DNA from: a virus
Lineage: Duplodnaviria > Heunggongvirae > Uroviricota > Caudoviricetes
IMG/VR virus record: IMGVR_UViG_2917393062_000005
Location: 1 to 36,279 of that record
Strand: one strand, 5' to 3'
DNA length: 36,279 nucleotides
Position 1 is the stretch's first letter. The number at the start of each line of letters is the position of its first letter. The position numbers and the translations under genes were made by a program. Positions 1-36,279 of the stretch are shown in pieces. Below the pieces are notes generated by a model. That model was not told the DNA's origin, did not search any database, and saw only the letters and a program-made list of their open reading frames with translations.

Positions 1-993
1 TTAACTCAATAACCAGACCAATATCACGATGATGGCGGTCAGCAATATCCACAGGCTGGGGCGCATGGCCATTTCTTGCATCGTGTTAATGAATGGCGTA
101 AAGGGATTGAGCAACGGTTGAATATCTCGCGGTTCAATCCCATTCACCCGCCGTTGATAAAGCTGGTTGAGGATATCCTCGGCCTGTGCGGAAGTCAGGG
201 CTGATTGCTGAGAAAGGCCATATTTTTGCTCAACATAGCTCGATAATACTGTCAACTCGCTGGCATCCAGTGGCTGTTTTAGCGCCATCTGAAGCGACTC
301 CAGCGTCGGTGTATTTTGCTGACTTAACACCTGGCGTGCCTGCAACCAGGTAACCAGGTGGGTAAACATTTTGGCCGGGATCAACTCACCATTTTTTACC
401 CCAGAAAGTTCCAGCATAGATTGCCAAATCTGCTTGCTGGGTTCTCCTGTTGCCGCCGCGAGTTTAGTCACCAGTTGCTTAAGCGTATTGTGTTCTGCCG
501 GTAGCAAAGGGCGATCGGTCGCCTGGCGCTGTTGCGGCTGCGGGATAACCATCTTCCCTTCCTGTAACAGCGTCAGGACGGTTTTTAATTGCTCCGGTGA
601 GAGTTGATTCAGCGGCGTCTGACCAAAGTTATGACGAATGTAATCTGTGACCGCCTGACGATTATTCCCCAGCCGTAAGTACTCGCTCAATTGCGCCAAA
701 AGCTGGCGGACAGAATGGCTTTCTTGCGCGGCCAGTAAACGTTGTGCAAGGTTTTGTTCTGCGGCGGGGAAATTGCGTGAAAGTAACGGTGAATCGCCCG
801 GCAGACCGATGTCGTGCTTTATACCGGCCCACAATTCCGCTCTCTGCTGTTGCGTCAGCGAAGTCACTTTGGTTATCAAACTTTCCAGCACTGTACGTTG
901 CAAGCTGGATAAAGGCTGATTGCCTGCGCCAGACGACAGTTTATCCCCCTGACCCGGTGGTTGCCCAGGAGGGGCGGAAATTGGTTGTATCAT
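1..993 (-). CDS. flk: Host flagellar regulator Flk-like protein, C-terminal membrane anchor; lies outside the prophage
   Basis: 330-aa Gln/Leu-rich protein starting MIQPISAPPGQPPGQG and ending in a hydrophobic segment (SLWILLTAIIVILVWLLS); matches Flk as I recall it (N-terminus, length, C-terminal TM). Recalled, not searched. Confidence 0.55.
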   Translation of the reverse strand: MIQPISAPPGQPPGQGDKLSSGAGNQPLSSLQRTVLESLITKVTSLTQQQRAELWAGIKHDIGLPGDSPLLSRNFPAAEQNLAQRLLAAQESHSVRQLLAQLSEYLRLGNNRQAVTDYIRHNFGQTPLNQLSPEQLKTVLTLLQEGKMVIPQPQQRQATDRPLLPAEHNTLKQLVTKLAAATGEPSKQIWQSMLELSGVKNGELIPAKMFTHLVTWLQARQVLSQQNTPTLESLQMALKQPLDASELTVLSSYVEQKYGLSQQSALTSAQAEDILNQLYQRRVNGIEPRDIQPLLNPFTPFINTMQEMAMRPSLWILLTAIIVILVWLLS

Positions 994-1161
994 TACGTAT
1001 CCTTATACCTGAAATCATCGCAAGTATGCCTGGCCGCGAGATTATGGCACACTTGTCCGGTTAACTCTCGTTCTCATACAGGTACCACAAACGTGAAAAT
1101 CCTTGTTGATGAAAAAAACAAAGATTTAATTTATTGATATAAAAGGATTTGTATCAGCGTA

Positions 1162-2327: not shown

Positions 2328-2738
2328 CATGTCTGTGAGATAGGGTGCCGTTTCGACCAACCTTAGCAACCGATTGACGGGGGATTACTCCCCCGTCGCG
2401 GTTATCTTACTTATTACATAGTAAGAATGCCGCAATTTCCGTGCCAGCAAACCTGAATCGTAACTCGCACGGTGATGTGTGGAGGATCCAGATTATCGCT
2501 ACCGCAGTTATGCAAAGTAACAGGGTTTTTAACGGAATTTGCGTCATAACGCTTGTCTCCTGAGAGGAGAGGCGCTAACCTTCTACTTGCGAAGGTAAGA
2601 AGTGTTAGGGCCTCGGTTAAACAAAAATGTTTTCCGGGGCCTTTCCACATCTGGCCTTCGGGTATTCCCTCCGACCATCAGCCGAAAGGCACCCGCGCGT
2701 AATCTATCGCTTTTTTGTTACTCCGGCAATTCTGCCTG

Positions 2739-6058: not shown

Positions 6059-6424
6059 ATGAAAGAGACGAAAAACATCGATACCGAAAACACGGTCGTT
6101 GCTGAAACAGCGAAAGAAACCAGTGAGCGTGGCGTAAAACTTACCCAACCAATTGAGCGAGGCGGCGAAAAAATCACGTATGTGGAGATCACCGGAGCTA
6201 TTGAGCAGGCTGGATCTCTGCGAGATTTGTCGCTGTCTGATGTGCTGAATCTGAAAGCGGAATCCATGTTTACGCTGCTGTCACGCGTGACATCACCGCG
6301 ACTGGATGAAGTGACGATCAAAAAAATGGCATCCCGTGACTTTATTCAGTTATGTGTGGTTGCCGTAAATTTTTTGAGCGGTGCGGACTCTGGCGGGAAG
6401 AACGAACAGGCGACGGAAGCCTGA
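6059..6424 (+). CDS. E: Tail assembly chaperone E (zero-frame product)
   Basis: Position between FII and T; contains the slippery heptamer; paired with an overlapping -1-frame ORF. Confidence 0.8.
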   Translation: MKETKNIDTENTVVAETAKETSERGVKLTQPIERGGEKITYVEITGAIEQAGSLRDLSLSDVLNLKAESMFTLLSRVTSPRLDEVTIKKMASRDFIQLCVVAVNFLSGADSGGKNEQATEA

Positions 6425-6588
6425 TCACGGTTGTGTGCTTTGAGCACATAGAAGACTTTGTGGCAGATATTGCCGTTATTTTTAACTGGTCGCCCGCCGA
6501 AATCTTCATGATGACGCCCGGCGAAGTGGTTAGCTGGCGTGAGCGGGCGGCACTTCGCAGCGGGAGTGTAGACAATGAAGACTCTTGA
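6059..6588 (+). CDS. E+E': E+E' frameshift fusion tail chaperone (E to 6376, then -1 frame to 6588)
   Basis: Two overlapping ORFs in frames differing by -1 joined at the slippery site; the E' end overlaps the T start. Confidence 0.7.
6370..6376 (+). promoter_or_regulatory. Programmed -1 ribosomal frameshift site TTTTTTG (E to E+E')
   Basis: T TTT TTG in the E frame; a -1 slip enters the 6352-6588 ORF frame (FFERCGLW...). Same heptamer and gene context as P2 E/E'. Confidence 0.8.
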
Positions 6589-10064: not shown

Positions 10065-10607
10065 ATGGATATAAAAACATTAAAGGAGTGTATAAAAATA
10101 GAAGTTATAGGCGGAAACCATGAGTTTTCATGGAGAAAAGCTTTAACTCGCACCAGACGCAATAGGCGAAAACACTTTATGTTTTGGTGGCGAGTGGCCA
10201 GCTATCTATACAGCAGAGGAGGGTTCATGCGCTGGGTGGGCAAACGCATCGGAGCAAACCTTCATCGCGATTATAATGTTGAGATTCCTTTAACAGTGAG
10301 TATAGGGCCAGGCTTAGATATTGCTCACTTATCAGGTATTGTTATTACAGAAAACTGTGTGATAGGGAGAAATCTACATATAAAGCAAGGTGTTACTATT
10401 GGTCTAAGAACCCCTTCCAATGAGGCAATGATTACTATTGGAGATAATGTTGATATAGGTTGCAATTCATCTATCCTTGGTGGGCAAGTTAATATCGGTG
10501 ATAACGTTACGATAGGTGCTCATGCTCTGGTAACAAAATCTATTCCTTCCAACTCAATATATATAAACGAAATAACTCCTGTTATAAGACAAAAAAAGGC
10601 GCAGTAA
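10065..10607 (+). CDS. Hexapeptide-repeat (left-handed beta-helix) acyl/acetyltransferase, moron gene
   Basis: Repeated [LIV]-G-x-x-x-x hexapeptides (IGRNLHI, VTIGL, ITIGDNVDIG, VNIGDNVTIG), WcaF/CysE-like. Markedly AT-rich compared with flanking tail genes. True start may be internal. Confidence 0.75.
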   Translation: MDIKTLKECIKIEVIGGNHEFSWRKALTRTRRNRRKHFMFWWRVASYLYSRGGFMRWVGKRIGANLHRDYNVEIPLTVSIGPGLDIAHLSGIVITENCVIGRNLHIKQGVTIGLRTPSNEAMITIGDNVDIGCNSSILGGQVNIGDNVTIGAHALVTKSIPSNSIYINEITPVIRQKKAQ

Positions 10608-10619: not shown

Positions 10620-11193
10620 ATGGTTGCTCTGGCCAATCAATATCGGTGGTATTTTCTGGTTGAATACGATTCACCAATACACGGTACTTCTTCCAGCGTG
10701 TCAAGTTTATCTTTTCGTCTTCTGTCGCTATATCTAAATCAACAGCGTCCTGCAAAGTAGCAATGATCTTACTCGCATAAGCGATTTGTTCTCTCTTCTG
10801 AGATTCGGCGGCTCTGACAAGTGCATCACGCTCTGCATTCTCATCATTCACCCACGCATTTCCGTTCCATTTCTGATAATTCCCATCGGGGAAAATGGTT
10901 GTCACGTCTGGGGGTAATGCACCAAGTTCAGAAATATAAATGGCCGTTCCCGTTTTCGTTTCGTAGACAGTCTCTCCGCGATGGTCTTCCATCAACTCCC
11001 ATTTCATTTCATTTGCATTGAAAACGGCAGCAAAACCCGCCGGAATATCAGGCGGCGCAATATCTGTACTGTTTGCAGGCAGACCTGTATACGGTGGAAT
11101 ATATGCGTCACTTTCACCAATAAATTCGTTTGTACCATCGAGATAATTAAATACGCGAATAATTTGTGCTTCTGCACTCATTTTAAAACCCAT
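10618..11193 (-). CDS. G: Tail fiber assembly chaperone G
   Basis: 191 aa directly downstream of H with overlapping start/stop; GxxxYxxxxGxxP-type N-terminus typical of tail fiber assembly proteins. Confidence 0.8.
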
Positions 11194-13811
11194 TATGCAA
11201 GCCTCACAATATAGTTAAATGCGATGTTTTTGACGGTGTTTTCGGTATTGCCAGTAGCATTTACGGTAATGGAATGCCCGTGTGAGCCAATAGCAACAGT
11301 GTGTGAATGTGCACCAATACCAACAGTATGGTTATGTGCTCCAATGTCGACTGTATGTGCATGATTGCCTGATGAACTTGTAGTCGTAGCACCTTTATCA
11401 CTTCGCGGAACACCATAATCTGCACCGCCTGATTGCACGCTCACAGCAAAACCGACGGTATGTGTATGATTGCCAGAAGTATTGGTTGATTTTGTGCCGT
11501 GGTTAAACGTACTGACTGTTTTTGTCCCGTAATCAAATGAACTGGTCGTTTTCGTCCCTAAGTCCGTATTTGACGCACTGGCGCTGTGAGTATGCGATTT
11601 AATCCCGTCCTGTTCCTGTGACAATACGGCACGCCCACTGGCGGGTTTTCCCTTGATTGTCCAGCCGCGCATATCAGGAATAACACCTGAAGGATAGGCT
11701 ATAGCCAGTTTCGGATATGCAGCCTTATCGAACGTCTGCCCCTGCATAATTGCATAGCCCGCAGGTGGTGTATCTGATGGCCACGGCAACGGAACACCTG
11801 GCGGAAACGCTTCGATATTTGCCGACCCGTCAAATTTTACGCCGTTAATTGTCCTTGCCGTTTTCAGCTTTGTCGCTGTAGCAGCATTGCCGGACAGTTC
11901 GCCTGAAAGACCACCGCTGAATGTCTGTTTCGCCGCCCATGTCTGAGCTTCGTCGATAATTGGCACACGTCTTGTTGTGATCGTGCGACTTCCCGGATTT
12001 CCTGAAATACGCACCATAAAAAAGCGGTAATTCGCTTTACTTACAGTGCTGCGCCATACATGCATTGAGCGCCCCGTACCGGAATCATCACTCGGACCAA
12101 CTGCGATGTTTATCAGGTTGCCATCAATGACGCCCCAGTCCATGCCGTCGGGAATGTTGGTCATGTTATCAAGCCGAACGGTTATCAGACTGCCCGGCAC
12201 AAAGTCGTAGGTCTGCCAGTCCAGGCTGGTGAGTTTTGCCACTGCGCCACCGATGCCCAGATTCAGAGGCAACGAAAAGGAGTTATATACTTCTCGCCAT
12301 TCGGTCCATTTGCTCCCGGCGTAGACGCGCTCAAAAGTGCGCCCCTGTGTGGTTTCTGATTTCCCTGTGGTTGTGTAACGCTGCCAGACAGACACACCAT
12401 CAAAACGTCTGATTACTTCCAGTATCCCAAGCAGTGTTGCTCCAGCGGTATCCTGCATTGGACCGTTTGTTGCCTTCCCTGTAACGCTGTAAATGCCAGG
12501 TGAAGTCAGATCATTCAAATCCCCTTCGTAATAACGACACTCTGACTGATGGCCCACTCTTGACCACGGTTCCCACTGTGGATTCTCTGCATTCCATGTA
12601 GCAGAAAGGCAGCGAACATATACATTCCCCCGGCGGGTCGTGTAACGTTGCATGCGTGAGTACCCACCACCTTCAAGAACTTCAAGGAGTCCCTGACCAT
12701 AACTTCCTTCTTCTGGATAGTTGCGGTCAAATGAAGCGATAGAACCACTACTGTTTCGCCATAAACCAAGATGCTCTGCGCCTCCGAGCGTGTTCAGGTC
12801 AATGGTTGTACTCAGAGGGCGTGTTGCTGACTGAATCTGTCGCCAGTAGCTCCACGGACCGTCAGAGCCATTCCAGGAACCAGCAAGGTTGCGCATATAA
12901 ACATTGCCAGTTCTGGTGGTATAACGCTGCATTCCTACAAAATTACCGCCATTGAATACCTCAAGAACACCGACGGCACCGTCTTCCGGGAAATGTTTCT
13001 CCAGTGTTGCGTTGGAGGATGTGGATTTATACCAGACCCCCACATAAGCCTTAACAGGACCAAACGTATTCAGATCAGCATCAAGCGGCATTTCGCCATT
13101 GTTTTTCATAAACGTCAGGCTGGTAACGCCAACATTGTCCAGAAAAGCGCCCTTATCTGGAATATCGTCACCGTTCTGGTCTTTCTGCAGACGTTTCTCA
13201 GCATTGTCATAGGCTGCTTTTACTGCCTTTGGCGTTGCCGCCAGCTCTTCACTGGTGCTGTTTGTTGCACTGCTTAACTGGGTAAAACCTTTTTCTGTCA
13301 GCGTGGCGTCAGGATGGCGGCGGGACTGCTCATGCTCTGCGATTTTGTCATCGACGTAATCCTGCGTCGCCATCACTGTGCTGGCATCAATACTCAGCTC
13401 AACGGACGCCACATTGCTGAGAATAATAACCATGCGGCAGGTCTGCGCACGCCCGGAGCCTTCAGCCAGTTCAGGCTTATAGCTTTCCGCCATGTTGGCG
13501 ACCGCAATCAGTGTTCCGGCATCGTCATACAGACCAAGCTCACGCATCCAGAAGCCGCCCACTTCTGGCGGAACAACCAGTTCAGCCACGATATAGTTTT
13601 TATTCTTATTATCCACGCTGACTTTATTCAGGGCGTGACGCCAGACCTCATGCACCAGTTTCGTCTGACCGGCATCCGGCACCGGCAATTTGCCATTACC
13701 GTCACCCACGGCCATTGCAGACAGGGTTACTTTTTTCCCGCCGGGGACAGTGGCGGCTGCCAGCTTTGCGGCTCCGGCAGTAGTGATAACGGTTTTAAAT
13801 TTCGTGCTCAT
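11193..13811 (-). CDS. H: Tail fiber protein H
   Basis: 872 aa; N-terminal about 200 aa match P2 gpH closely ([63 protein letters not shown]). C-terminus carries HxH repeats. Confidence 0.93.
11222..11420 (-). repeat. Imperfect tandem repeats encoding HxH motifs at the H C-terminus
   Basis: Protein repeats NHTHTV, NHAHTV, AHNHTV, AHSHTV, SHGHSI, with corresponding repeated nucleotide blocks. Confidence 0.6.
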
Positions 13812-13821
13812 TGTTTCTCAC

Positions 13822-14382
13822 TTATCCGGGATAAACAGTAATAACATCACCATCACAGACCACACCGCCTGTATACAGATAGCCGGGAATGTCCTGGATA
13901 ATGTTCAGACCGATAAGGTGGCGACTTGCGGGTTTGGCATCGGCAATCAGCCGTTCCATTTCCAGATACATTTCCTCGGTCACACCACTGTCCAGCGTGC
14001 CAACATCAACCTTGAATGTTCCGGGTTCGCCGTCGAACTCCCACCACTCAGACACGCGAATGAGGTATCCCAGCGGTTCAATGGCTCGTCGCAGGGCGCT
14101 GATGGTTCCTTTGTGTCGGTGTGTCAACCATGCATCACGAATCACCTGTCGCTTTGTCTCTTCTGGCCAGTTGCGATCCCAGCGGTCAACGGAAAACGCC
14201 CAGGCGAGATAAGGCAGCAGATGTACCGGGCAGGTGTCCGGCGACCACAGCGTGTTGAGGTCTACCGGAATGTCTGTAATGCGTGTCCCGACGGCTTCGG
14301 CACAACGCATGAAATTGCTGGCTGATGGCGGTAACAGTGAATTACTCATTACGCCCACCTTCGCTGATGGTGAATGACTCAC
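13822..14382 (-). CDS. I: Baseplate protein I
   Basis: WSPDTCPVHLLPYLAWAFSVDRWD, ERLIADAKPASRHLIGLNI and GDVITVYPG match P2 gpI. Confidence 0.9.
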   Translation of the reverse strand: MSHSPSAKVGVMSNSLLPPSASNFMRCAEAVGTRITDIPVDLNTLWSPDTCPVHLLPYLAWAFSVDRWDRNWPEETKRQVIRDAWLTHRHKGTISALRRAIEPLGYLIRVSEWWEFDGEPGTFKVDVGTLDSGVTEEMYLEMERLIADAKPASRHLIGLNIIQDIPGYLYTGGVVCDGDVITVYPG

Positions 14383-15237
14383 AGCGCGCCGCCTGTATGT
14401 CGCTGATGGCCATATTCTGTGTGGGTTCGATTATCTCCACGCGTTGCACACCGTGCACATGCAGTGCGGCAGCAATGGCGGACAACGCCACATCCTGACC
14501 GATAAGCCCCTGCTCAGCCAGCCACTTCCTGAACGACGATTCAGCCGCAGCCAGAATAGGTTCGGATTCCGGGCCGGGGTAGAAGTACAGTTTTGCATTC
14601 AGCCGCCATGTCACGATTCTGGCGCTCTGTACGGTCAGGCGGTCGGCCACCGGGCGGGTATCCTCTGCATTCAGAACGGCGCGAACGGTATTAAGCAACG
14701 CCTCCGTTGCTGTGCCGTCGCCCTCAGTGGACAGAATGGAAACCGTCACGTTGGCCGGAGACGGGCTGATGGCCCGCGCGTCGCGTACCAGACCGCTGGC
14801 GCTGCGTGCAAAATACTCGTATGCACCTGACGGGCCAGCAACACTCAGACCGTCATACGCCCGTTGCGCCCGCAGTCTCAGTGAGGTGTCACTTTCCATC
14901 ACCGCGTCGGTGGTATCCGTTGCCGGAGTGATAACCAGGCGCTTTGTGTTCATATTGCCCGCAAGGTTGTCCAGGTCTGTCCCGGCGCTGTGGCTTAGCA
15001 TGCAGCGCGTGCACCCTCATTGACCCGCTGGCGTAACAGCATTTCACGAAACGCTGTTGTCTGGGCGATAACGTTCAGGGGCTCCGATTCCAGCTCCAGC
15101 GCGGCGGAGACGGCTTCACGCTGTTCGGCGGGATAAGCCGCAATCATCATGGCCTTTGTATCAGCCAGAATTGCCTCAAAGTCAGGCTCCGCGATGATGG
15201 CGGGTTCCGGTAACTGGGAAAGGTCAACGGCAGGCAT
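14342..15237 (-). pseudogene. J: Baseplate protein J interrupted by a frameshift (80-aa N-terminal ORF plus 219-aa C-terminal ORF)
   Basis: Both pieces match P2 gpJ (N: LPEPAIIAEPDFE...RQRVNE; C: TKRLVITPA...VTVQSA...ALHVHGVQRVE), but the first stops at TAA (14995-14997) and the second starts in a different frame at 14999-15001. Confidence 0.8.
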
Positions 15238-15240
15238 GAT

Positions 15241-15591
15241 TTACTCCCTCAGCGTGATGGTTAATTCAACATTCTGCATGGTCTGCATGACAGTGCCCGA
15301 CAGCGTCACCCCGGCGCGGCCTCCTGCCTTCCAGACAACGTCGATGGCGTCCAGGGCAATGCGGGGTTCCCATCGCGTCAGTGCAATCACGGCAGCACTC
15401 ATGCATTGCAGACGCGTGGTGTTATTCATGGGCTCGTCAATCAAATCAGGCACAAGGCTGCCATATTCCCGTCGCATAACCCGGCTTGCCAGCGGGGTGA
15501 TCAGGATGTCCCTGACTGACTGTTTCAGGTGCTCCATATCGTTCAGGTTTCCCGTCCCGTCCGGATTCATTCCTGTGTAGCGGGTTGTCAC
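15241..15591 (-). CDS. W: Baseplate protein W
   Basis: 116 aa; RVMRREYGSL and WEPR motifs match P2 gpW. Confidence 0.85.
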   Translation of the reverse strand: MTTRYTGMNPDGTGNLNDMEHLKQSVRDILITPLASRVMRREYGSLVPDLIDEPMNNTTRLQCMSAAVIALTRWEPRIALDAIDVVWKAGGRAGVTLSGTVMQTMQNVELTITLRE

Positions 15592-26012: not shown

Positions 26013-26324
26013 TTATTCGGGAAATAACGCCCGGATATTTCCGGCCATCTGACTGGTTATCTGTGCGGTTGATACTGGCTGTGACGCGGGGCATTCTGTC
26101 CTGGTTTGTGTCACTGATAACGCCTCATCGTCAGCCCATGCAGCCAGTCGGTAAGCCTCTGCCGGATTCATTTTCAGAAGAGCCAGCCCGGCCAGAAAAG
26201 CCACGCGTTGGCCGCTTTTGCGGGCTTCTGGTGTAAGGCTGTCCAGCCAGGCGCATGCTTCGCTTTCGTTCTTGACGGCCGCAGGCTTCAGATAGAAACT
26301 TATCCGTCTGGTTGGTGTCGTCAT
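26013..26324 (-). CDS. parR: ParR/StbB-like centromere-binding partition adaptor
   Basis: About 104 aa from MTTPTRRISFYLKP; AAGGAG RBS; immediately downstream of parM; resembles R1 ParR (FKLNPD..., RAALTAGLALY, ...LFP) as recalled. Confidence 0.65.
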   Translation of the reverse strand: MTTPTRRISFYLKPAAVKNESEACAWLDSLTPEARKSGQRVAFLAGLALLKMNPAEAYRLAAWADDEALSVTQTRTECPASQPVSTAQITSQMAGNIRALFPE

Positions 26325-26328
26325 TGGT

Positions 26329-27288
26329 TTACTCCTTGTCCATTGCGTACAGCCCATTAACCAGAGCAAACTGTGGCACCCCGTCCGCGATGAAAGTCGC
26401 ATTAACTCCGCAGGCTTCGCGGATAGCGGGTGCCACAATCTCCGCCCCTCCACCGACAACCATCACCCGCCCGTAACCCGAAAAACCCGCCAGCGCGCGG
26501 ATCACGCGTTGTTTCAGTGTTTCTTCCTTTTCACGAATAACCGCCATCAGGCTGGCGTAATGCGCGTCATTGTGGATGTGCTGGCGCAGCCAGGCTTCAT
26601 CATGGCGATGTTCGATAATGGTATTGGCGATGTGGTGACTGGTGCGCATACCGTTAGTGGCCATCACCGACAGTACGGCATCGGCCATCAGAGAAACGCC
26701 TACGTGTGGATCGCAAAACACCTGGCTGATACCTGCCAGTTGCCCCTGAACCTTTGCCACATCCAGCGTGGTTCCGCCCAAATCCACAATCAGCAGGGAT
26801 TCAAACGGACTCATGTCAGCCAGTGCCTTAAAGCCAGCCGGAATGGATTCAGGCATAACCCGCACGTTACGGATAGTGAATGCTTCGCCGTTCTGGTACT
26901 CCACCGGGCGCATAACGTTCGCTTTTTTGCGGTTGATGTTGGCCATGTCCGGCTGTGCGTTTGTGTCGAAATACTCGCTCAGTGGCAGGGTGACAACCAC
27001 ATCCACCTCCTGTGGCGTGATGCCTGATTTGACCAGCGCGTGATGAATGGCAATGACATTTACATCGCTGTATTGGTATTGCGTGTCGGTTGTCTGGACA
27101 AAGCGATCGCTGACCGGATCAAAACCATAGCGCACTCCATCAAGCATGTAGTTCGCGGGCTGCATGCCACCGAACGGCGCAGACCATTCCGACTTGAAGC
27201 TGTTCGGGCTGATGGCGTTGCGGCGTTCGCCGTTCTCAGTCCATGCCAGCTTGATGTTGGTGGAGCCGTCGTCGATACAAATTTTCAT
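26329..27288 (-). CDS. parM: ParM/StbA actin-like partition ATPase
   Basis: 319 aa with the ParM motif series: IDDGSTNIKL, ISPNSF, QYSDVNV, HHAL, QPDMANI.RKKAN, VMPESIPAG, DLGGTTLD, GISQ, GVSL, VGGGAE, LVNGLY. Confidence 0.85.
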   Translation of the reverse strand: MKICIDDGSTNIKLAWTENGERRNAISPNSFKSEWSAPFGGMQPANYMLDGVRYGFDPVSDRFVQTTDTQYQYSDVNVIAIHHALVKSGITPQEVDVVVTLPLSEYFDTNAQPDMANINRKKANVMRPVEYQNGEAFTIRNVRVMPESIPAGFKALADMSPFESLLIVDLGGTTLDVAKVQGQLAGISQVFCDPHVGVSLMADAVLSVMATNGMRTSHHIANTIIEHRHDEAWLRQHIHNDAHYASLMAVIREKEETLKQRVIRALAGFSGYGRVMVVGGGAEIVAPAIREACGVNATFIADGVPQFALVNGLYAMDKE

Positions 27289-30847: not shown

Positions 30848-31023
30848 GGTGTGGCCTCTTTGCTCGGTGATAGAAATAACTCACCATCCAGAGTTGAGAA
30901 TCTCGGGGTGGCGAGACGTACAGGGTTCTCAACACCGGAGAGCAAAGAATCCGGCCCGACCGAAGTCGGCCCCGTACGCCCCGCCATAATTCTGACGCGA
31001 AAAAGACGTGGCAATACAGTACG

Positions 31024-31047
31024 CACAAAAAAACCGCTTGCGCGGTT
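31024..31047 (-). terminator. Rho-independent terminator on the minus strand inside the early region
   Basis: Plus-strand A7-AACCGC-TTGC-GCGGTT; on the minus strand this reads as hairpin then T7. Confidence 0.55.
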
Positions 31048-31169
31048 ATGCGCTTTGCTCTGTATCGGGTTGAGAATCCCGGCACCCGTTTTATGAGGTG
31101 CAGCGGAAATGTAACCTGACCGATTGAGGCATGGCAAGCGGTTTTTTTGTGTGTGCATGTTCTGGTTTC

Positions 31170-35274: not shown

Positions 35275-36279
35275 ATGTCAATTAAGAAGCTCGAAGATGG
35301 TCGTTATTTGCTGGACATCAGGCCGAACGGACGCAAGGGAAAGCGCGTGCGTAAGGTATTTGACAAAAAATCGGTAGCGGTGGCCACTGAACGCTACATC
35401 ATGGCGAACGCTGAAAAGCGGGAATATATACAGGGCTACCGTGATCGCCGAACGCTAAATGATTTGCTTGAGTTGTGGTGGATGTATCACGGTCAACACA
35501 GGCGTAAGGCGGAAGAAGACCGAAAACAACTGCGCAACATAATCAATGAGCTTGGCGCTGATATGCAGGCTGTGGATCTTGATAAGCTGAAAATTATCGC
35601 GTGGCGTTCTCAAAAGATAGCTGATGGATTGAAACCGTCATCTGCTAACAGGTACATGAATCGGTTATCCGGAATGTTTACCGTGCTGAAAAAAATAGGT
35701 CTTTGGGATGCAGAACATCCGGTAAGGGGAATTTCTATTCTTTATGTATCTCCACGAGAAATGGCGTTCCTGTCACAGAAGGAAGTTGCGTTATTGCTCG
35801 ATACATTGGAGGGCGATTACTGGCGTGTTGCTCTTTTGTGTTTAAGCACAGGAGCGCGCTGGAGTGAAGCCTGTAAGCTCCGTGGTGAACAGATAGTTCA
35901 TAACCGAGTGACGTTTCTTGAAACCAAAAATGGCCGAAAGAGAACAGTGCCAATTTCGCAGGCAGTTTGTGAGGCGATCAAAACCAGAGAAACAGGCAGC
36001 TTGTTTGAGGTGAAGTACCGGGAATTCTGTCTGGCGCTGAAAAGAGTTAAGCCCGATTTGCCAAAAGGCCAGGCTGCACATGTGCTGCGGCATACGTTCG
36101 CCAGCCATTTTGTGATGAACGGAGGAAACATTATTGCGCTTCAGAAGATTCTTGGCCACGCAACCATTCAGCAAACAATGGCATATGCACATTTTGCACC
36201 GGATTACCTGCAGGATGCGGTGGCCCTTAATCCGCTGAAAGGTGGCGTAAGTGTCCACGCAGTGTCCACGGGGGATTAA
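35275..36279 (+). CDS. int: Tyrosine integrase (P2 Int family)
   Basis: MSIKKLEDGRYLLDIRPNGRKGKRVRKVFDKKS matches the P2 Int N-terminus; catalytic-region motifs LSTGARWSEA, HVLRHTFASH and MAYAHF. The ORF track starts at 35260. Confidence 0.93.
   Translation: MSIKKLEDGRYLLDIRPNGRKGKRVRKVFDKKSVAVATERYIMANAEKREYIQGYRDRRTLNDLLELWWMYHGQHRRKAEEDRKQLRNIINELGADMQAVDLDKLKIIAWRSQKIADGLKPSSANRYMNRLSGMFTVLKKIGLWDAEHPVRGISILYVSPREMAFLSQKEVALLLDTLEGDYWRVALLCLSTGARWSEACKLRGEQIVHNRVTFLETKNGRKRTVPISQAVCEAIKTRETGSLFEVKYREFCLALKRVKPDLPKGQAAHVLRHTFASHFVMNGGNIIALQKILGHATIQQTMAYAHFAPDYLQDAVALNPLKGGVSVHAVSTGD
36252..36264. repeat. Candidate attR core (TGTCCACGCAGTG) inside the int 3' end
   Basis: Identical to 1162-1174, with partial matches in the flanks. 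Confidence 0.5.

Follow-up and report, generated by a model that had tools for sequence, protein, structure and literature searches.

Gene J and the prophage that carries it

The window analyzed here, a stretch of 36,279 nt taken as a whole, contains a prophage in which the baseplate gene J occupies two open reading frames (ORFs) lying in different frames of the minus strand, flanked by intact copies of W and I (Table 1). The first ORF of the window is no phage gene but host flk, and the prophage is located between flk and pdxB. Its left boundary is formed by a 20-nt att core, the right copy of which lies 183-202 nt past the window end (11188-11207 of L016), inside the 5' end of pdxB; the two core copies are direct repeats, and an integrase gene is present. 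Integration into the 5' end of pdxB has left the original GTG start of this gene at window position 1092, and the phage end provides pdxB with a different upstream sequence, in which TTA replaces GTG. Since the GTG start is lost to pdxB, the gene must start elsewhere: its called product either begins at an upstream TTG and has 385 aa or, in a related genome, begins at a downstream ATG and has 370 aa.

Judging from sequence relatedness, the prophage belongs to the P88/PhiR44_2-like phages (Xuanwuvirus, Peduoviridae). Counterparts were found for 43 of the 49 PhiR44_2 proteins, mostly with 88-100% identity, and DNA blocks that are 87-97% identical to P88 and PhiR44_2 are collinear genome-wide. 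The host flank shows 93.4% identity to all 5,426 complete E. coli genomes versus 96.5% to Escherichia sp. E1V33, and the host is therefore placed in a cryptic clade of Escherichia. The alignment to E1V33 breaks at host dedD (L016 17356-18156), whose product has 266 aa here versus 216-240 aa in related genomes, suggesting that a linker or repeat in this protein varies in length.

Apart from J, the prophage is in good condition. The structural, lysis, and replication genes nearly all match PhiR44_2 over their full length. When the PhiR44_2 proteins were compared to the window by tblastn, J was the only gene represented by two high-scoring segment pairs (HSPs) in two frames, every other gene with a counterpart in the window being found in one frame. 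Moreover, the ~52 kb inspected (the window plus ~16 kb of host flank) contains no further frame break, and the host genes in the flank are of normal length. An old cryptic prophage would be marked by multiple lesions, by deletions, or by truncated genes; in this prophage, J alone is broken.

Other genes of the prophage deserve a brief description. The tail fiber protein H matches PhiR44_2 over residues 1-673 only; its C-terminal part differs and bears repeated His-x-His motifs, and no exact copy of the protein was found outside the two assemblies of the window's strain. A 180-aa hexapeptide-repeat (acetyltransferase-like) ORF, a candidate moron or gene for lysogenic conversion, lies between gpU and the tail-fiber assembly gene, where no gene is annotated in PhiR44_2. 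Beside ogr, the left end carries cargo comprising an N6/N4 DNA methyltransferase gene, a Com-type zinc-ribbon gene that precedes it, and a Hok/Gef toxin gene. Downstream of the gpA replication gene, the prophage has ParM/StbA-like and StbB-like genes for plasmid partition, as does PhiR44_2. In the early region, two Rfam families scored above the gathering score, namely, the C4 antisense RNA (78.5 bits) and the isrK Hfq-binding sRNA (63.1 bits).

Table 1. Window positions of the J fragments, of the lesion, and of other features of the prophage
Feature	Position	Strand	Description and evidence
Host flk	1-993		First ORF of the window
Left att core	1096..1115	+	20 nt, AAAATCCTTGTTGATGAAAA; left boundary of the prophage
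Left-end cargo (methyltransferase, Com-type gene, Hok/Gef toxin gene)	1224-2015, about 1960-2157, about 2407-2547	-	
E/E' slippery heptamer	6370-6376	+	T TTT TTG
180-aa hexapeptide-repeat ORF	10065-10607	+	
H	11193..13811	-	Tail fiber, 872 aa; intact; downstream of J in the same operon; strain-specific marker
I	13822..14349	-	Wedge partner of J; intact; downstream of J; ATG overlaps the J stop as ATGAGTAA; tblastn, Pfam
J, C-terminal fragment	14342..15001	-	219-aa ORF from the native Met80 codon; Pfam PF04865, tblastn HSP
Premature stop codon	14995..14997	-	TAA resulting from the frameshift
J, N-terminal fragment	14995..15237	-	80-aa ORF: native residues 1-78, Ala-Cys, premature TAA; tblastn HSP residues 1-86; PF26776
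Native Met80 ATG	14999..15001	-	Overlaps the new stop as ATGCTAA; possible termination-reinitiation start
1-nt deletion	15004..15006	-	Remaining C is 15005; GCGCCTG in relatives, GCGCTG in the window; alignments
W	15241..15591	-	gp25-like sheath initiator; intact; upstream of J; 100% identical to PhiR44_2 gpW over the full length; Pfam GPW_gp25
StbB-like and ParM/StbA-like partition genes	26013-26324 and 26329-27288	-	
C4 antisense RNA and isrK sRNA	30904-30991 and 31027-31101	-	Rfam matches
Integrase	35275-36279		

A single missing nucleotide splits J

The initial annotation had described J as split into two ORFs in different frames with a TAA at the junction, owing to an indel within a few nucleotides of the residues equivalent to ARAVMLAC in P2. 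The ORF boundaries that it gave are exactly those of Table 1, and the indel proves to be a deletion of 1 nt. The 80-aa ORF ends in ...RQRVNEGARAAC*, the asterisk being the TAA, and overlaps by 7 nt (ATGCTAA) the 219-aa ORF, which begins with MLSHSAGTDLD.... In a nucleotide alignment of the window's J with three intact relatives (from an avian-pathogenic [APEC] E. coli prophage, PhiR44_2, and P88), there is a single gap, which is also the sole length difference between them: where the relatives have GCACGCGCCTGCATG, the window has GCACGCGCTGCATG, with a CC pair reduced to a single C. The deletion falls at codon 78/79, and the TAA follows two codons on. All of the residues of intact J are kept across the two ORFs, in the form of native residues 1-78, an extra Ala, Cys79, and Met80-298.

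The protein comparisons agree with this picture. The 298-aa gpJ of PhiR44_2 yields two tblastn HSPs (frames -1 and -3), one extending over residues 1-86 and the other, with 98.7% identity, over residues 75-298, and the repaired J is 99% identical to the intact relative P0017. In P2 gpJ, the break aligns with ...NEAARAVMLACAAG..., as had been anticipated; the prophage is not P2 itself but of the P88/PhiR44_2 type, with a J protein only 54% identical to gpJ. Two antisense ORFs on the plus strand (14444-14830 and 14712-15023) are without support and are regarded as chance ORFs.

Comparison with intact J genes of relatives, a check that the initial annotation had proposed, sets a single 897-nt ORF against the 896 nt of the window. 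The J span is 897 nt long in all 30 E. coli matches listed (coverage reached 80% or more in 1,007 genomes) and in 13 of 13 phage matches; these E. coli and phage genes are annotated as encoding a baseplate assembly protein. Because every listed match has 897 nt versus 896 nt in the window, the split is not a chance pattern.

J is a member of the Baseplate_J family broken at an invariant motif

The 219-aa fragment matches the Pfam profile Baseplate_J (PF04865) with an E value of 1.3e-19 and 71 bits, for a cut-off of 21.1. The 80-aa fragment alone has no Pfam-A match in the profile scan; in the precomputed Pfam assignment, it is covered by Baseplate_J_N (PF26776), a domain that spans both fragments. 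NCBIfam contains no match for J, whether intact or split. P2 gpJ and the intact relative P0017 are collinear over their full length (54% identity over 302 aa; E=8e-114), and intact J aligns over residues 4-297 with Tri1 of the R2 pyocin (PA0618; PDB ID 6u5b; E=5.9e-75). The profile match, the full-length collinear homology, and the position within V-W-J-I-H-G all place the gene in this family. Since its members consist of a single uninterrupted ORF of ~298-302 codons and the window has one of 80 aa followed by one of 219 aa, the window's J is a pseudogene or split allele of the Baseplate_J wedge protein and not an intact member.

Conservation is high at the break. Nearly all of the whole-query protein homologs listed, from a total of 4,790, are 298 aa long, down to 67% identity, and none of those listed is naturally split at this point. 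In an alignment of 23 relatives, also reaching down to 67% identity, residues A78-C79-M80-L81-S82-H83 are invariant, which locates the break inside a conserved motif. The AlphaFold2 model of the intact relative, computed with a 23-sequence alignment, predicts a helix across the break (residues 53-83); since the model is poor (mean pLDDT, 52.7; pTM, 0.37), it suggests only weakly that the break lies within a helix.

Distribution of the deletion

An exact 32-mer spanning the junction has no match in 185,579 species-representative genomes or in 2.9 million viral contigs, and a degenerate 25-mer has none in metagenome contigs. A junction 53-mer, built so that each of its 28-mers crosses the junction, is absent from all 5,426 complete E. 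coli genomes, 225 of which contain the intact 54-mer used as a control; such exact or 28-mer-seeded searches miss copies with single nucleotide polymorphisms near the junction, as in the P88 haplotype. Within this scope, the deletion is private to one strain.

A look-up of the exact 219-aa product returned ten places. The lesions seen in the alignment are a G5-to-G4 change (L007, L013, and L015), an A3-to-A2 change (L011), and an additional C (L009 and L012), and other carriers show a scaffold gap, a contig truncated at its end, or a truly degraded prophage. Since frameshifts in the N-terminal part all give the same 219-aa ORF, the result of the look-up is an ascertainment effect. A frameshift hot spot in J or an allele shared among the carriers was considered and rejected, as the aligned lesions differ. 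The independent J frameshifts, among them those of E. coli DEC14C and P0304777.12, are found at codons about 59-79, mostly in short homopolymers; some of them may be platform errors, and others may be real pseudogenes.

Discussion

The frameshift in J is probably a real mutation. The initial annotation had left two options, a genuine lesion that would bar the prophage from producing infective particles unaided and a sequencing error; this interpretation is supported, with the former option favored. The window is 100% identical to contig VCDZ01000006.1 of GCA_005845405.1 over the 8.6 kb compared, deletion included; between W and I, the record lists no J protein, in keeping with a locus called as a pseudogene. 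Over 31 kb, the window is likewise 100% identical, deletion included, to contig 133 from the Logan assembly of SRR6148342; this contig stops at window position 1507, with the exact Flk protein encoded on a separate Logan contig. These are evidently two different assemblies of the same strain; a literature search found no mention of SRR6148342, VCDZ, or GCA_005845405. The agreement of two assemblers, the CC context of the deletion, the restriction of the split to J, and the normal host flank together favor a genuine mutation. Moreover, the rest of J and of the prophage is free of further decay, suggesting that the lesion is recent. Our best reading is thus a real and recent loss-of-function mutation in J that has left the prophage unable to make tails, and we consider it likely.

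The main alternative, that J is really intact (GCGCC) and that the missing C is a sequencing or consensus artifact common to both assemblies, strikes us as rather unlikely. Both assemblies probably stem from the same read set, and a systematic read error at the site is possible; on the other hand, the output of the two assemblers is the same at every base over 31 kb, and the fact that the 45.6-kb contig of the k=31 assembly is identical to that of the submitter suggests, by inference, accurate deep short reads. The J frameshifts of other assemblies that occur at homopolymers (G5 to G4 and A3 to A2) resemble platform errors, whereas the site in the window is a CC pair and contains no run of at least 4. 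An error would also fit a single-base lesion in an otherwise perfect gene that is seen in one strain only, with a 219-aa part occurring in identical sequence in other assemblies and a repaired J that is 99% identical to P0017, but the ~52 kb around the site has no other frame break.

Another possibility is that J is split yet works. The start codon of the C-terminal fragment overlaps the new stop codon, so some two-piece J could be made by reinitiation at ATGCTAA. The deletion would then by chance have turned J into a translationally coupled gene pair, the 80-aa and 219-aa pieces of which would join noncovalently in the wedge and yield infective particles, leaving the phage at least partly infective. 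[quoted passage not shown] A Shine-Dalgarno-like GAGG (-6.1 kcal/mol) is located upstream of the ATG, although this weak site is spaced by 12 nt, compared to 4-8 nt for the native starts of the operon. Since, in addition, the homologs listed are never split here and the arrangement is private to one strain, we hold both reassembly of the pieces and residual infectivity to be very improbable. If true, this would be a natural case of a contractile-tail wedge protein tolerating fission in its conserved N-terminal region.

Restoration of full-length J by a programmed -1 ribosomal frameshift or other recoding can practically be dismissed: although the passage from the first to the second frame is a -1 shift and a genuine -1 site exists in the same window, in the tail chaperone genes E/E', the two J frames are jointly open over 22 nt only (GGGTGCACGCGCTGCATGCTAA), an X XXY YYZ heptamer is absent from the whole of the first ORF, transcriptional slippage would find no long run of A or T, and J lies in one frame in the relatives, so that, with neither a slippery heptamer nor relatives with two frames, the split is not one of programmed recoding.

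If the deletion is a real loss-of-function mutation, as we favor, its effect can be considered in light of what is known of the baseplate. [quoted passage not shown] The loss of one C would end translation at the TAA after 80 residues and leave the remaining 219 codons in the -1 frame, behind the Met80 ATG. As the N-terminal regions of J and gpI build the core bundle and trifurcation unit of the wedge, a J chain cut in this region would prevent assembly of the baseplate and, hence, of the tail. The break would most likely abolish wedge assembly, and we infer the loss of infectivity from the P2, pyocin, and T6SS literature. Premature termination in J might also exert polarity and lower the expression of I, H, and G.

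Upon induction, the prophage would still excise, replicate, fill heads, and lyse the cell, and the particles released would be tail-less and noninfectious unless J were supplied in trans. The prophage is thus predicted to be inducible yet tail defective, giving lysis without plaques unless J is complemented. This is relevant to users of the strain or the prophage, for instance, when host range or induction is studied in cryptic clades of Escherichia; otherwise, it mainly concerns annotation. We recommend that J be annotated as a pseudogene at this locus, where the NCBI record appears to be without a J protein call. More generally, single-base frameshifts in prophage structural genes should be confirmed at the read level before a prophage is called defective.

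Comparison with known systems

Among known systems, gpJ of P2 is related to the window's J by collinear homology over the whole length at 54% identity, by the Pfam Baseplate_J domain, and by the same V-W-J-I-H-G gene order; it differs in having its 302 aa in one ORF, whereas the frame is broken after residue 78 here. The J genes of P88, PhiR44_2, and E. coli prophages are closer, with 95-98% nucleotide identity and the same gene order prophage-wide, but the copies listed run uninterrupted for 897 nt, compared to 896 nt in the window. The likeness to Tri1 of the R2 pyocin (PA0618; PDB IDs 6u5b and 6u5k) extends to the break itself, where the motif RINDAARAVMLAYASGADLD aligns to RVNEGARACMLSHSAGTDLD; Tri1 is an intact protein of a tailocin, not of a phage, and its likeness to J is one of sequence.

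The E/E' genes share with the split J the arrangement of two overlapping frames that serve one tail function. In E/E', the heptamer is followed by a 70-codon open -1 frame, which extends to position 6588 and is 96% identical to E' of PhiR44_2, and P2 has a T-run at its annotated E/E' frameshift site. The slippery heptamer of E/E' is conserved, as is the pair itself throughout the family, whereas the J junction has neither property.

Finally, the prophage resembles defective or cryptic prophages with a single lesion, in that it is otherwise complete and has one frameshift, in a gene essential for morphogenesis. It differs from them in that its exact deletion was found in no other record and further signs of decay are absent; by comparison, L008 is a truly degraded relative, whereas the prophage of the window is broken in J only. 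The J locus is an ordinary pseudogene due to a single-base frameshift or, less probably, a sequencing error; the gene and the phage family are both known, and the lesion calls for no new mechanism and is known in kind.
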